DNA from: an uncultured Candidatus Saccharibacteria bacterium
Lineage (GTDB): Bacteria > Patescibacteriota > Minisyncoccia > Phycocordibacterales > UBA9973
Direction: 5' to 3'
Assembly: GCA_964500465.1 (NCBI GenBank)
Contig: CAZCNB010000001.1
Coordinates: forward strand, 34,567 to 98,566
Length of the DNA: 64,000 nucleotides
Shown: one piece after another, positions 1,559 through 6,783 of the stretch
Numbering within the stretch: the stretch's first letter is position 1
Layout of the letters: the number at the start of each line of letters is the position of its first letter
Translations under genes and position numbers: made by a program
Notes under the pieces: model-generated
What the model was told of the DNA's origin: nothing
Seen by the model: only the letters and a program-made list of their open reading frames with translations
The model's database searches: none

Positions 1559-2140
1559 ATGGCTAAAAAAATATCACCAGGTTCTATTAGGTATCGACTG
1601 GTTACAGATTTTAAAAATGCAAATGTTATTCCACACTTGAAAGTTTGGGTAGATGCTATACACGATAATTCACTAAATATGTTACCTGAAACGGTAGAAT
1701 CTTTAAGAAATAAATTATTGTGTGCAGTATTTGCCTTCCATAACCAAAAGTTAGTGGGAGCCGGCGGAATTATGTATCCGCCAACTAAACCTTTGTACTA
1801 CAACAAAAAGCGAGTGGTAGAATTCAGATCTGTTTTTCGTCACCCTGATTATAAGAAATGTGGTATAGCCACAGAGCTTGTAATTAAAAGATTGGAATTT
1901 GTAAAGCAAAGTAAACTTTTCCCAGTTATTCTTACAAAGCAGCCAGACATGAAGCCAATATTGAAGAAACTCGGTTGGGTCTATATAGAGAAACAGCTTG
2001 TAAAGAAGCTGGTACCCGTCAAGAATGGCTTAAGGGATTGCTCTTGTCAAAACAATAAAAGGATACCTTTCATTGGGGAACGATGTTCAAACTGCCCAAT
2101 GCTGGAAAGATTTACTTGGATCAATCCATCATTCCTTTGA
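1559..2140 (+). CDS. Putative GNAT-family N-acetyltransferase
   Basis: VEFRSVFRHPDYKKCGIATELV resembles GNAT acetyl-CoA binding motif (R/Q-x-x-G-x-G/A); weak. Confidence 0.45.
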   Translation: MAKKISPGSIRYRLVTDFKNANVIPHLKVWVDAIHDNSLNMLPETVESLRNKLLCAVFAFHNQKLVGAGGIMYPPTKPLYYNKKRVVEFRSVFRHPDYKKCGIATELVIKRLEFVKQSKLFPVILTKQPDMKPILKKLGWVYIEKQLVKKLVPVKNGLRDCSCQNNKRIPFIGERCSNCPMLERFTWINPSFL

Positions 2141-2285: not shown

Positions 2286-3665
2286 ATGACTAAACGTTCT
2301 GTTGCTTCAAAGAAGCTCTGGAAAATTGGTGCGAAAGAATTTAATACTCAATATTTTGACTTTAATAAAGACGGCGACCTTATCATAAAGGAAGGTCACA
2401 ATATTTATAATGTTCGCTACTTAGCTGATAAGATGGGTACTTCACTTGAAATACTCATGCCTTTTGTTATTGAAGAGAGATTAGAAGACTTGCTCGATAC
2501 AGCTCATGCTCTTTCAAAGAAAACTGGATACAAAGGTAAATTCCTTTATCATTTCCCAATGAAGGTTAATCAAAATAAAGAAGCCGTTATGTCTATTGTA
2601 GGTGAAGGTGCGCATCTTGAAACTTCATCTTACAATGACCTGTATCTGATCAAGAAAATGCTAGAACAAGAATCTTTTAATCCTAATATTCGTATTCTAT
2701 GTAATGGCCCAAAGACCGATAAATACATGAACCTTATTGATGAACTTCAACACAAAGGAATGAAAATTTTTCCAATCATAGAAGGGCCAAATGAACTAAA
2801 ATTTCTTCAGCATTCAAAATACGATGTAGGTATCCGTATAGATATGCCAGTAAAAGCTCAGTCTATTTGGAACAAGCCAATTGATCGCTTTGGATTTTCT
2901 GCGAAAGAAATAATCGCAATGGGGCGCTTTAAGAACTTAAAAATTCTCCACTACCATATTGGTTCACAAATTGAGAAACTTTCTGATGTTATTGTACCTA
3001 TCAAATATGCCCTTGATATTTTCTTTAAATTAAAACAACAAAATCCGTCATTAGACACTCTTGATATTGGTGGAGGAATGCCTATCCCTTATGAGAGAAC
3101 AAAAAGTTATCCAGTAGATAAATTGCTTGAGAAAATATTTGAAGTTGTTAAAAAAGAATCTGAGAAAAGAGGAATGCCACATCCAAATATTATCTGTGAA
3201 TGGGGTCGCTATATTGCAGCACCAGCACAGATAAATATTTATAAAGTTATTGATACAAAAAAGATTCATAGTAAAAAAGCCGAAGCCGATAAATGGTATG
3301 TTATCGATGGTAGTTTTATGAACGACTTATGTGACACATGGGCTATAGGTCAAAAATGGGCAATAGCCCCAGTGAATAATAGCAATGACAAGAACCTCAC
3401 AAATGTCTGGCTTGCAGGATCAACTTGTGACTCAGATGACGTATATACAGGCACAAAGGGTTCTATAGAGCTTCCAGATTATGAAATGGATGAAAGTAAG
3501 CCAATGTATATAGCTGTATTTGATACTGGTGCATATGAAGATGCTCTAGTAATGCACCATTGTCTACTTTCTTCACCACTTAAGATCATTGCAGAAAATG
3601 GGCATATAGTTGTCGCTCGCAAACGTGAGACACCAGAAGAAGTTGGAAAAGTATTTGGTTGGTAA
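2286..3665 (+). CDS. speA: PLP-dependent arginine decarboxylase (fold-type III, SpeA-like)
   Basis: PMKVNQ PLP-lysine motif, DIGGGMPIPY, HYHIGSQ, CEWGRY motifs of Orn/Arg/DAP decarboxylase family; SpeA-like HxGSQ; adjacent agmatinase. Confidence 0.75.
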   Translation: MTKRSVASKKLWKIGAKEFNTQYFDFNKDGDLIIKEGHNIYNVRYLADKMGTSLEILMPFVIEERLEDLLDTAHALSKKTGYKGKFLYHFPMKVNQNKEAVMSIVGEGAHLETSSYNDLYLIKKMLEQESFNPNIRILCNGPKTDKYMNLIDELQHKGMKIFPIIEGPNELKFLQHSKYDVGIRIDMPVKAQSIWNKPIDRFGFSAKEIIAMGRFKNLKILHYHIGSQIEKLSDVIVPIKYALDIFFKLKQQNPSLDTLDIGGGMPIPYERTKSYPVDKLLEKIFEVVKKESEKRGMPHPNIICEWGRYIAAPAQINIYKVIDTKKIHSKKAEADKWYVIDGSFMNDLCDTWAIGQKWAIAPVNNSNDKNLTNVWLAGSTCDSDDVYTGTKGSIELPDYEMDESKPMYIAVFDTGAYEDALVMHHCLLSSPLKIIAENGHIVVARKRETPEEVGKVFGW

Positions 3666-3687
3666 TTATTATTAATAATAAATATAT

Positions 3688-4707
3688 ATGAACAATAATC
3701 TTCCTACATTAGAATTTATTTTAAAAAATTATAAGAATTTCAACGCTCGTGCTACTCGCGATGCACTCATTGCATATTGGAGGCATACAGAAAAAGGTGG
3801 CAAAATGTTCTGGGCTCTTGCTGGAGCTATGTCTTCAGCACAGCTTGGAATAGTTCTTGCTCCAGCTATTCGTGCTGGACTTATATCTGGAATATCATCA
3901 ACGGGTGCAAATCTTGAAGAGTCACTCTTCCGCCTCGTAGCTCATAATTCTTACAAAGATTTTCCAGATTACAGGTACTTCACAAAGGAACATGATACAA
4001 AAATATTAGAAGATAGAATGCGTCGCGTTACAGACACAAGTATTCCAGAAGATGAAGCATTTCGTGCTGTTGAAAAACACATAGTTCCTACATGGAAAGA
4101 AGCAACTGAAAAGGGAACACGTATGTTCTGGCATGAATACTTCTATGATCTTATTCAAAAAATAGACAAAGAAGACCATGAAGGCAAAGCAGATGAATGT
4201 TGGCTTCTTGCGGCAGCAGAGAATAATATTCCAATAGTTGTTCCAGGATATGAAGATTCAACATTTGGAAACATTTTTGCATCACACGTGAAAACTGGTG
4301 AATGCAATGCAAGTATTGTGAAGTCAGGTATTGAATACATGGCTGCTTGGTATGACCAATACAAAAAGTTGTCTGATGGGGAAGGAGTAGGATTCTTCCA
4401 AATTGGTGGAGGTATAGCAGGAGATTTCCCAATCTGCGTAGTGCCATCTATTAAATATGATCTTGGAGAAGATGTTAAACCATGGGCATATTTCTGCCAG
4501 ATTTCCGATTCTACTACCTCATACGGCTCATATTCAGGAGCTACTCCAAACGAAAAAATTACTTGGGATAAACTTACAAAAGACACACCAATGTTTGTTA
4601 TTGAATCAGATGCCACAATAGTTGCTCCACTCATACTCCAAGCCTTACTTGAAATGAAAGCAAATCCAAAAGAGGCGAATGAATTGATTTCAAAATATAC
4701 TGCATAA
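3688..4707 (+). CDS. Deoxyhypusine synthase-like protein (putative homospermidine synthase)
   Basis: SSTGANLEESL, NIPIVVPGYEDSTFGNIF, QIGGGIAGDF, SYSGATPNEKITWDKL align to DHS motifs including catalytic Lys (WxK). Confidence 0.75.
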   Translation: MNNNLPTLEFILKNYKNFNARATRDALIAYWRHTEKGGKMFWALAGAMSSAQLGIVLAPAIRAGLISGISSTGANLEESLFRLVAHNSYKDFPDYRYFTKEHDTKILEDRMRRVTDTSIPEDEAFRAVEKHIVPTWKEATEKGTRMFWHEYFYDLIQKIDKEDHEGKADECWLLAAAENNIPIVVPGYEDSTFGNIFASHVKTGECNASIVKSGIEYMAAWYDQYKKLSDGEGVGFFQIGGGIAGDFPICVVPSIKYDLGEDVKPWAYFCQISDSTTSYGSYSGATPNEKITWDKLTKDTPMFVIESDATIVAPLILQALLEMKANPKEANELISKYTA

Positions 4708-4713
4708 AATAAT

Positions 4714-4740
4714 AAAACCCCCGAATCGGGGGTTTTATTA
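4714..4740. terminator. Bidirectional intrinsic terminator between DHS-like gene and agmatinase
   Basis: aaaacccccgaatcgggggtttt perfect hairpin with A/T tracts both sides. Confidence 0.75.
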
Positions 4741-5625
4741 TTTTAATCTGTCTCTAAATTTATTTGCAATAATACTGTAACAAAGTTGAGCTGCACCATA
4801 CTCAGTCAGCACTGAATCTTTCATAGGGGAGACTTCTACTATATCTGCACCGATAAGATTTTTTTCTTTAACTAAGCGAGTTATAAGCTCCATTCCATAC
4901 CACCATTCAAGACCACCTTGTACAGGCGTACCTGTACCTGGCATATGAGCAGGATCAAAACCATCTACGTCTATAGTAAGATAAACGTTTTTTGTATTTA
5001 TTGAAGCAAGTATTTCATCTATTGTTGGAATTTTATTTGCATTACCCCATTCAAAAACTTTAATATTATTTTTAGGATCACTAAAATAATTATATTCATC
5101 TATTGAATATGTACGGATACCAACTTGGATAAGTTTATAACCGAGCTCATTTCCACGATGAAGAACACATGAGTGAGCGTACTTTGATGGGTGAGTACTA
5201 TAATCGCCATCATTGTCACGAAGGTCACAGTGAGCGTCTATATGAAGTATAGTAGTATCTTTTGCATCTATATGTTTTGCAAGTGCTTGAAATAATCCAA
5301 GTGATACTGAGTGTTCACCACCTAAAAGAAATACAAATTTACCCTCAGAAACAAATTTCTCACACTCAGTTGTTATTTTACTCAATGCTTTTTCTGGAGT
5401 TAATTTATTTATATTACCTAAATCTTTTTGTGCAATTTTTACAAAATTATTCACCTCTTTTTTGTATTCACGATCGAAAAATTCGAGTTTACTATCTAAA
5501 CATTTAAGTATTGCCTTTGGTCCATTGATAGTACCTTTACGACTGGAAGCTGTTTTTTCATAAGGTGCAGACACAATAACAACGTCTGCAGTTTTTGTAT
5601 TTTTTTCATTTAAAATTGAATTCAT
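4738..5625 (-). CDS. speB: Agmatinase (ureohydrolase/arginase family)
   Basis: GGEHS, DAHCDLRD, DVDGFDP, metal-binding motifs of arginase/agmatinase fold. Confidence 0.8.
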   Translation of the reverse strand: MNSILNEKNTKTADVVIVSAPYEKTASSRKGTINGPKAILKCLDSKLEFFDREYKKEVNNFVKIAQKDLGNINKLTPEKALSKITTECEKFVSEGKFVFLLGGEHSVSLGLFQALAKHIDAKDTTILHIDAHCDLRDNDGDYSTHPSKYAHSCVLHRGNELGYKLIQVGIRTYSIDEYNYFSDPKNNIKVFEWGNANKIPTIDEILASINTKNVYLTIDVDGFDPAHMPGTGTPVQGGLEWWYGMELITRLVKEKNLIGADIVEVSPMKDSVLTEYGAAQLCYSIIANKFRDRLK

Positions 5626-5844
5626 ATAGAAACTATGATACAGAAATAAGCCATTTAATGCAATAAAATTATGGGCATGTTACAATATCCTGGTATGGAT
5701 AGGAAATCTTTCATTATGATCCTCATAATAGCTATTGCTACTTTAGTATCAATATATTTCTTGTACCAAAGATCTTATAATGACAAAAGTTTTGAAATAA
5801 TTGACGATAATACTTTAAATTTAAGCCAGAACAATTCTTAATTT

Positions 5845-6783
5845 ATGCATAATAATTGGTTTTTTATAGCTTTAATACCACCCATACTTTGGAGTATAGT
5901 TAACCACGTTGATAAATACATACTTTCTAGACATTTCAAGGGTAGTAGTTTAGGTGGGATATTTCTTTTCTCATCCTTATTTTCTATAGTTGTATTAATT
6001 TTTATTTCTCCATTTTTGTCAGATTCATTTTTTGATGTCCCTTTTGCTCACATTCTACTACTGCTTTTTGTTGGTGCTTTAAATGCTTGTGCATTCTTTT
6101 TATATTTAAAAGCTATAAATGAAGAGGAGGCTTCTATTGTTGTACCATTGCTTCAAATGATACCAGTGTTCGGTTATCTACTAGGTTATCCTATTCTCGG
6201 TGAAGTGCTTTCTTCTCAACAAATATTAGCAGCAATTATTATAATGATTGGTGTATCAATACTTTCTATAGATTTTGATATTGATAACAATAAGTTTTCT
6301 GTTAAAAAAAGAATACTACTTTTAGTAGGTGGGTCATCTTTTTTGTTTGCTTTACACGATGTTCTTTTTAAAACAGTTACAGATGAAAACCACTTTCTAA
6401 TTTCAGCTTTTTGGCAAAACTCTGGTTTGGTTATTGTAGGATCTTTAGTTTTTATTTTTCATAAAGTATACCGTAAACAGTTTATAGAAATATTTATTGC
6501 TAATAATGCTAAGGCCCTCTCTCTAAATATAATATCTGAAGTACTATATACTATCGGTAGTCTTGCAAATAGTTTTGCTACATTACTTGCACCAGTTGCA
6601 CTAGTATTGATTATAAGTAGCTATCAACCACTATTTGTGTTTGTTATAGGAACACTGCTCACTATGTTTTTACCTATAATTAGTAGTGAAAAAGTTACTT
6701 TAAAACATTTACTTCAAAAGATATTATCTATTATAATAATAATCATAGGGAGTTATCTTCTTTATTCATTCTCAACCTATTAA
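5845..6783 (+). CDS. Polytopic membrane protein, DMT/EamA-like transporter
   Basis: ~10 predicted TM helices, two-repeat architecture; no specific motif recognised. Confidence 0.45.
   Translation: MHNNWFFIALIPPILWSIVNHVDKYILSRHFKGSSLGGIFLFSSLFSIVVLIFISPFLSDSFFDVPFAHILLLLFVGALNACAFFLYLKAINEEEASIVVPLLQMIPVFGYLLGYPILGEVLSSQQILAAIIIMIGVSILSIDFDIDNNKFSVKKRILLLVGGSSFLFALHDVLFKTVTDENHFLISAFWQNSGLVIVGSLVFIFHKVYRKQFIEIFIANNAKALSLNIISEVLYTIGSLANSFATLLAPVALVLIISSYQPLFVFVIGTLLTMFLPIISSEKVTLKHLLQKILSIIIIIIGSYLLYSFSTY

Follow-up and report, generated by a model that had tools for sequence, protein, structure and literature searches.

What does a deoxyhypusine synthase (DHS)-like enzyme do in a bacterium when its gene is placed between those of an arginine decarboxylase and an arginase-fold hydrolase? 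This question is raised by a compact locus within the 64-kb stretch of DNA analysed here (64,000 nucleotides, the window). An earlier note on this DNA had described three polyamine genes at the locus, and the Pfam, NCBIfam and structure matches agree with the coordinates and the identities that it gave. The three open reading frames (ORFs) are:

2286-3665, + strand: ORF of the putative arginine decarboxylase, 459 amino acids
3688-4707, + strand: ORF of the DS-family, SpeY-like enzyme, 339 amino acids
4738-5625, - strand: ORF of the arginase-fold ureohydrolase (agmatinase homolog), 295 amino acids

A gap of 22 nt separates the first two genes, which run in the same direction, and the ureohydrolase gene is convergent to them. 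We propose that the locus probably encodes the SpeY-type ('diagmatine') route, in which arginine is converted to agmatine, agmatine to N1,N9-bis(guanidino)homospermidine (G44G) and G44G to homospermidine.

The central enzyme of this proposal belongs to the Pfam DS family (PF01916, 2e-38, residues 17-319) and not to an unrelated family. Its AlphaFold model has a predicted local distance difference test score (pLDDT) of 87 and a predicted template modelling score (pTM) of 0.88, and shows TM scores of 0.72-0.79 to the DHS structures 8put, 6p4v and 1dhs; the DS fold predicted from the sequence is confirmed by this confident model. To compare the active sites, we aligned the window protein with 20 representatives of its clade, the experimentally characterized CdmS of Thermus, the SpeY of Cylindrospermum (CsSpeY), which was used as a named SpeY reference, and DHS. 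The full sequences of CdmS and CsSpeY were taken from the supplement of PMC10981699, and the human DHS reference was checked against the Protein Data Bank. The alignment recovers the published equivalences between CdmS and human DHS (S67/N106, F204/D243, L286/D316, E293/E323 and K299/K329). The TWDKL motif, in which the earlier note had seen a retained catalytic lysine, is located at residues 292-296, and its Lys295 indeed aligns with the catalytic Lys329 of human DHS and with Lys299 of CdmS. Lys295, Glu289 and Trp293 form an E-x3-W-x-K motif that is invariant in the 20 clade representatives and in alignment A1. Most residues of the NAD site are kept as well (Glu77/Glu78, Asp190, Gly240-242 and Asp308).

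Regarding the residues that distinguish SpeY from DHS, the window protein shares with SpeY, and not with DHS, Gly105, 'TGAN' at 131-134, 'DS[ST]' at 238-240, the absence of His288 and the presence of Phe289. An insertion of about nine residues after the GGG motif and the non-acidic residues at 243 and 316 are also SpeY-like. Three residues of DHS are not kept, His288, Asp243 and Asp316 being replaced by Asp246, Asn195 and Tyr282, respectively. By its aligned residues, the window enzyme carries SpeY-type rather than DHS-type signatures, an assignment that is provisional since the signatures were derived from two SpeY sequences only, CdmS and CsSpeY. In DHS, His288 is the proton-shuttling residue, acting as acceptor and donor, and has been called invariant (PMC7226451). 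We considered an inactive enzyme as the outcome of His288 loss and rejected this explanation, because the active CdmS is also without His288, as is CsSpeY; both have Asn at this position. The similarity scores show the same distinction. BLASTP aligns the window protein to CdmS with 28% identity (83 bits) and to CsSpeY with 27% identity (79 bits), compared with 52 bits for plant DHS and 45 bits (22% identity) for human DHS. A hidden Markov model (HMM) of the clade gives 137 and 135 bits on the two SpeYs and 83 and 65 bits on eukaryotic DHS. The protein is thus nearer to the SpeYs than to eukaryotic DHS by both BLASTP and HMM.

The chemistry of these SpeYs has been established in assays. Thermus CdmS converts two agmatines to G44G, named 'diagmatine' (Kobayashi et al., PMC10981699), and G44G is converted to homospermidine by a ureohydrolase in Thermus, as described for T. 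thermophilus CdmS plus TtSpeBap (PMC10981699, PMC13625781). Six further SpeY homologs from diverse phyla produce G44G from agmatine (Li et al. 2026, PMC13625781); human DHS, plant DHS and the tested bacterial homospermidine synthase (HSS) make no G44G (PMC13625781). The SpeB homologs linked to SpeY hydrolyse G44G, their activity on agmatine not being detectable, and the route through SpeY and the one through putrescine and HSS are described as excluding each other (PMC13625781). The cluster of Winogradskyella algicola, an ancestral arginine decarboxylase (ADC) of the alanine racemase (AR) fold with speB and speY, contains the same three gene types as the window (PMC13625781). The earlier note regarded the combination of a DHS-like gene with those of ADC and agmatinase as the known signature of an alternative homospermidine route. 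The cluster type is real, but the chemistry has since been revised to agmatine coupling. The order that the note gave, from agmatine to putrescine to homospermidine, conflicts with the assays of CdmS and the six SpeYs (PMC10981699, PMC13625781), and the window enzyme has SpeY signatures rather than those of DHS; homospermidine as the likely end product is retained.

Applied to the window, the SpeY-type route would start with the short decarboxylase, a pyridoxal phosphate (PLP)-dependent enzyme that would convert arginine to agmatine. The co-transcribed DS-family enzyme, with bound NAD+, would then oxidize the primary-amine end of one agmatine, and the 4-guanidinobutyl group, held as an imine on Lys295, would be transferred to the amine of a second agmatine, releasing ammonia and forming G44G. 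Finally, the arginase-fold hydrolase would strip both guanidino groups from G44G to give homospermidine and two urea; putrescine would not be an intermediate. We infer the homocoupling of agmatine and the G44G specificity of the hydrolase by analogy, from assays of homologs only about 27-28% identical.

The enzyme of the first step matches Pfam Orn_Arg_deC_N (7.5e-21) and Orn_DAP_Arg_deC. It is a PLP-dependent protein of the AR fold, and its closest solved structures are those of SpeA (3nzq, 3n2o and 3nzp). The best NCBIfam matches are SpeA models with 199 and 184 bits, which cover the N-terminal two thirds only and stay below their cutoffs; the miss (199 versus 369 bits) is expected, because the decarboxylase is a short form. 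When aligned to E. coli SpeA (3nzq), the query advances from residue 325 to 332 while the chain advances from 380 to 480, and a four-helix bundle of about 100 amino acids is absent. The protein is therefore the short 'ancestral' AR-fold form, and it matches the 'ancestral AR-fold ADC' of PMC13625781, which is without this bundle. The motifs PMKVNQ (91-96), with the PLP lysine, GGGMP (262-266) and CDSDD (381-385) are intact. Relatives of the decarboxylase in loci of the candidate phyla radiation (CPR) are 71-93% identical and adjoin the DS gene in most. From these matches, we infer that the enzyme makes agmatine and is specific for arginine.

The ureohydrolase matches Pfam Arginase (2.2e-64) and contains the metal-ligand motifs GGEHS (102-106), DAHCD (130-134) and DVDGFDP (219-225). 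Its solved relatives are agmatinases and guanidinobutyrase. The sequence fits either agmatine or G44G as the substrate, no published sequence rule telling diagmatine ureohydrolases (DUHs) from agmatinases, and the linkage to a SpeY-like gene, together with the hydrolases of PMC13625781, points to G44G. In five CPR loci (L003, L005, L007, L020 and L023), the convergent hydrolase is replaced by a co-directional arginase-family gene, such as 7138-7995 in L003. Because the replacement is only 28-33% identical to the hydrolase of the window, two ureohydrolase lineages partner the same DS gene.

This partnership is conserved well beyond the window. An exhaustive HMMER search of 1.84 billion representatives yielded 1443 DS-family clusters, with the clade of the window as the top group (38-66% identity). 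The decarboxylase gene is adjacent to the DS gene in 35 of 40 related CPR loci; in 30 of these it is positioned directly upstream, and in the other 5 it lies downstream in convergent orientation. An arginase-family gene is present in 31 of the 40. The three-gene arrangement is not due to chance. A second homolog search brought up one more subclade, with members from Omnitrophota, Micrarchaeota, Bdellovibrionales and Parachlamydiales and from none of the species with an assayed SpeY. The gene orders and fusions found in the wider clade are as follows:

L085: PvlArgDC::Arginase fusion, then DS
L086: Arginase, then DS
L090 (Omnitrophota): DS, Arginase, PvlArgDC
L091 (Parachlamydiales): long SpeA, Arginase, DS
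L092 (Bdellovibrionales): long SpeA, DS
P0123 (Euryarchaeota): fusion of a SpeD-like pyruvoyl decarboxylase with DS
P0133 (Pseudomonadota): SpeD-like::DS fusion
P0124 (756 amino acids, on a 2.5-kb JGI contig): triple fusion of SpeD-like AdoMet_dc, an NNMT/PNMT/TEMT-type methyltransferase and DS

Apart from the DS gene itself, all that stays constant across these lineages is a guanidino-hydrolase and an arginine decarboxylase, the latter in four forms of three unrelated folds. This linkage is the SpeY cluster pattern of PMC13625781 and PMC10407285. That CPR and DPANN lineages have clusters with SpeY, SpeDA and HSS was noted already in 2023 (PMC10407285), and CPR bacteria are unmentioned in PMC13625781.

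The host was assigned through the DS protein, whose nearest relatives (82-96% identity) come from metagenome-assembled genomes (MAGs) labelled Candidatus Paceibacterota, Nomurabacteria or Patescibacteria. The small-genome organism of the earlier note is therefore a CPR bacterium, with Candidatus Paceibacterota or Nomurabacteria as close relatives. The window has a GC content of 29-37%, and its housekeeping genes encode DnaJ, CysS, DnaB, aminoacyl-tRNA synthetases, MraY, MurG and the ATP synthase alpha subunit. The KPGxG motif of elongation factor P (EF-P)-like proteins occurs in no frame of the 64-kb window, a result that holds for this stretch and is not informative for the genome as a whole. 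Neither a spermidine-synthesis gene nor an HSS-like gene is found among the annotated genes of the window.

A distinct feature of the DS gene is the extreme conservation of its subclade. Members from CPR bacteria are at least 79% identical to those of Myxococcota, Planctomycetota, Oligoflexia, Sericytochromatia and Verrucomicrobia, at a GC content of third codon positions (GC3) from 0.25 in CPR to 0.99; the Myxococcota members include the isolates Polyangium fumosum and Labilithrix luteola. The ultra-conserved form is found in loci L027-L080, for example at 6001-7005 in L031 and 6001-7011 in L052. Over 81 sequences of the subclade, 159 of 339 positions are invariant. In the few CPR loci that allowed a comparison with the neighbouring genes, the conservation of DS exceeds that of DnaJ (3 loci) and of CysS (6 loci), and a neighbour-joining tree separates CPR, Oligoflexia and a high-GC group. 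The 40 non-CPR loci have neither a decarboxylase nor a ureohydrolase partner within ±6 kb, and all-against-all clustering of their ORFs found no conserved neighbour, only shadow ORFs of the DS gene recurring. We read this conservation as that of a horizontally spread enzyme under very strong purifying selection, which leaves a little room for another or an extra function.

Some of the related loci have other surroundings. In the Sericytochromatia-like L070 (4196-9892), the DS gene stands between GT2/GNAT genes and ergothioneine genes, which encode an EgtB-like FGE-sulfatase/DinB protein and an EgtD-like Methyltransf_33 protein. The Sericytochromatia loci L047 and L069 and the related L070 were considered as the tested Sericytochromatia cluster and were not equated with it; their neighbours are GT2, GNAT, EgtB and EgtD, not SpeD or SpeB. 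An Oligoflexia MAG (L044, 5989-9752) has, after its DS gene, genes for an aspartokinase and a LysA-like AR-fold decarboxylase in place of those for arginine decarboxylase and hydrolase. A tblastn search with the DS protein against plasmid and phage collections gave no match. Two clade members, at 5001-5954 in L087 (P0294; a 70.9-kb JGI/Tara contig) and at 5001-6041 in L088 (P0128), are located amid many small ORFs that have no Pfam hits and only weak PHROG matches, which suggests that L087 and L088 are phage genomes. A published BLASTP search found no SpeY homologs in viruses (PMC9992855).

Several observations weigh against assigning the locus to the SpeY-type route. The identity to both comparable SpeYs, CdmS and CsSpeY, is only about 27-28%, and two active-site positions differ from both, with Lys287 replaced by Gly245 and the Asn at 288 by Asp246. 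The catalytic-loop motif is Gly-Asp-Phe (245-247) in the window enzyme, compared with Lys-His-His in DHS and Lys-Asn-Phe in CdmS and CsSpeY; the Asp246 position is invariant across the clade, and Gly/Ala is conserved at 245. The protein belongs to a distinct DS clade that has no name of its own and reaches no NCBIfam equivalog cutoff, scoring 109 bits with its best model, PRK00770, 'homospermidine biosynthesis protein' (cutoff 450 bits), and 75 bits with PRK02492, the Thermus-type 'G44G synthase' (cutoff 500 bits). Archaeal DHS models give it 84-98 bits, the best of them nearly as much as PRK00770. Ten other clade members likewise stay below the equivalog cutoffs with 95-128 bits. No assayed SpeY species of PMC13625781 is among the few organism names given for the clade clusters. 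Moreover, the context of decarboxylase, ureohydrolase and DS genes alone fits the G44G route and a putrescine route alike, and the ureohydrolase passes the agmatinase equivalog TIGR01230 with 220.5 bits (cutoff 174.3), which fits a putrescine-forming role. These last two points are in line with the route of the earlier note, where a true agmatinase would release putrescine and the DS-like enzyme would make homospermidine with putrescine or spermidine as the aminobutyl donor, like the plant homospermidine synthase derived from DHS. The agmatinases as nearest solved relatives of the hydrolase suit this route as well, and the PvlArgDC::Arginase fusion of L085 can be read as two consecutive steps. 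We nevertheless consider it unlikely, since all bacterial SpeYs assayed make G44G from agmatine and need the ureohydrolase afterwards, and since the hydrolases linked to SpeY are without detectable agmatine activity, while a true agmatinase would compete for the substrate of SpeY (PMC13625781). The window enzyme also lacks Asp243 and Asp316, two of the residues that human DHS needs to bind spermidine, in addition to His288. Furthermore, the SpeD-like::DS fusions tie a decarboxylase directly to the DS enzyme, and the annotated window genes include none for the synthesis of spermidine.

The conservation of the subclade, together with the absence of partner genes around the 40 non-CPR DS genes, raises another explanation, namely that the DS-like clade performs a different transfer. 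The acceptor would be another amine, giving a new guanidino-polyamine, or a lysine of a protein or other macromolecule, as in hypusine formation, and the conservation would then reflect an unrecognized macromolecular partner. An identity of at least 79% from CPR to high-GC phyla, the 159 invariant positions across such a range of GC3, and a conservation above that of DnaJ and CysS are in line with this explanation, as are the Gly-Asp-Phe loop, the two catalytic-site positions that differ from assayed SpeYs and the lack of a curated equivalog covering the clade. It appears quite improbable, however, because clade members from CPR, Omnitrophota, Parachlamydiales, Bdellovibrionales and archaea are tightly and repeatedly linked or fused to an arginine decarboxylase or a guanidino-hydrolase, and because the clade shares the motifs and the insertion that are specific to SpeY. 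It has no linked candidate for a protein substrate, and the known modifications of bacterial EF-P use other enzymes. A last alternative concerns the first step, as the decarboxylase could act on diaminopimelate, ornithine or lysine rather than specifically on arginine, in which case the cluster would make another polyamine. The NCBIfam LysA model aligns to it over its full length (129 bits), every SpeA model stays below its cutoff, and diaminopimelate decarboxylases are its next-best solved relatives. However, its best matches are SpeA models and structures, and its sole large departure from SpeA is the missing helical bundle, as reported for the ancestral ADC. Related DS genes adjoin canonical long SpeA and pyruvoyl arginine decarboxylases, and the arginase-fold guanidino-hydrolase of the cluster would have no role unless a guanidino compound is made; we consider a decarboxylase of other specificity very unlikely.

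For the transcription of the three genes, the following signals were found:

2152-2197, + strand: intrinsic terminator after the upstream GNAT gene, a hairpin (2152-2190) plus a U7 tail
2208-2235, + strand: promoter-like site (TTTACA, 16 nt, TG-TATTAT), about 50 nt 5' of the decarboxylase start codon, predicted only
4705-4745, both strands: bidirectional intrinsic terminator, a perfect 19-bp hairpin with flanking A/T runs that overlaps both stop codons
5725-5752, - strand: promoter-like site (TTGATA, 16 nt, TATTAT), about 100 nt 5' of the ureohydrolase start codon, predicted only

The shared hairpin terminator that the earlier note placed between the co-directional pair and the convergent hydrolase is present as a perfect palindrome. 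Its arms are AAAAUAAUAAAACCCCCG-AAU-CGGGGGUUUUAUUAUUUU, and it includes the 30-nt spacer between the convergent genes. The calculated free energy is -24.6 kcal/mol (z = -7.0), and none of 200 shuffles is equally stable. The terminator of the GNAT gene, folded as 2145-2200, gives -25.2 kcal/mol (z = -7.2), again with 0 of 200 shuffles as stable. This strong terminator cuts off the upstream GNAT gene and so leaves the genes of the decarboxylase and the DS enzyme as a unit of two. Both promoter-like sites have 10 of 12 matches and are among the four top-scoring sites of the scan, the one at 2208-2235 having an extended -10 TG. The scan was not enriched over shuffles (28 sites versus 25.8 expected), so that position is the sole argument for the site at 2208-2235, and the same caveat applies to 5725-5752. 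A short inverted repeat, CTGGCG...CGCCTGG, is located at 2240-2285, where the 5' leader of the decarboxylase gene is presumed to be, just before the start codon. The Rfam scan of the window found two tRNAs only and no riboswitch or sRNA at the locus.

Two genes flank the cluster. The GNAT acetyltransferase gene at 1559-2140 (+ strand) lies 5' of it. We considered this protein as a polyamine acetyltransferase partner and rejected it, since the gene is a separate transcription unit and is kept in only 4 of the 40 CPR loci. It is unrelated in sequence to the GNAT adjoining the Sericytochromatia-like DS gene, which lies directly 5' of DS in L047 and L070. On the other side, a gene for an EamA/DMT-family transporter at 5845-6783 (+ strand) adjoins the ureohydrolase gene. 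Of the related CPR loci, 14 have a homolog of it (29-68% identity), which frequently adjoins the hydrolase gene, and the protein may be a polyamine or agmatine transporter.

CPR/Patescibacteria have pared-down genomes without most biosynthetic pathways, yet in dozens of species-level genomes all three genes of this route, which leads from arginine to a triamine, are retained and closely conserved. Such retention argues that homospermidine, or its guanidino precursor, is indispensable to CPR bacteria. Homospermidine, G44G and urea output would also provide a metabolic marker for these uncultured cells. The large DS subfamily to which the enzyme belongs is annotated only as 'deoxyhypusine synthase family protein' and falls outside the NCBIfam SpeY/CdmS models. 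The Asp in place of the catalytic His of DHS bears on the mechanism of agmatine coupling. Current knowledge is not overturned by these results; the SpeY findings of 2024-2026 would be extended to another lineage.

Lastly, we compared the window enzyme with the three known systems that it resembles. Like SpeY/CdmS, it keeps the catalytic Lys, the equivalents of Glu323 and Trp327 and the SpeY-type motifs, and its gene is clustered with those of the other two steps. Further differences from CdmS and CsSpeY are the Tyr in place of Leu at 316, the Asn in place of Phe/Met at 243 and the 'EE' pair at 136-137, which the window enzyme keeps as DHS does; in addition, the window enzyme comes from a CPR host, and the conservation of its subclade is unusual. 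The eukaryotic and archaeal DHS (EC 2.5.1.46) have the fold, the Pfam DS family, the NAD-site residues and the catalytic Lys of W-x-K in common with the window enzyme. In the latter, however, Lys287 of DHS is replaced by Gly, and Asp243, Asp313 and Asp316 are replaced by Asn, Tyr and Tyr, respectively, and what the linked genes encode is an arginine decarboxylase and a ureohydrolase, not IF5A. Bacterial HSS (EC 2.5.1.44), a relative of carboxyspermidine dehydrogenase, has the same presumed end product and the same NAD-dependent chemistry, but its fold is unrelated to that of the DS-like enzyme, and its substrate is putrescine.

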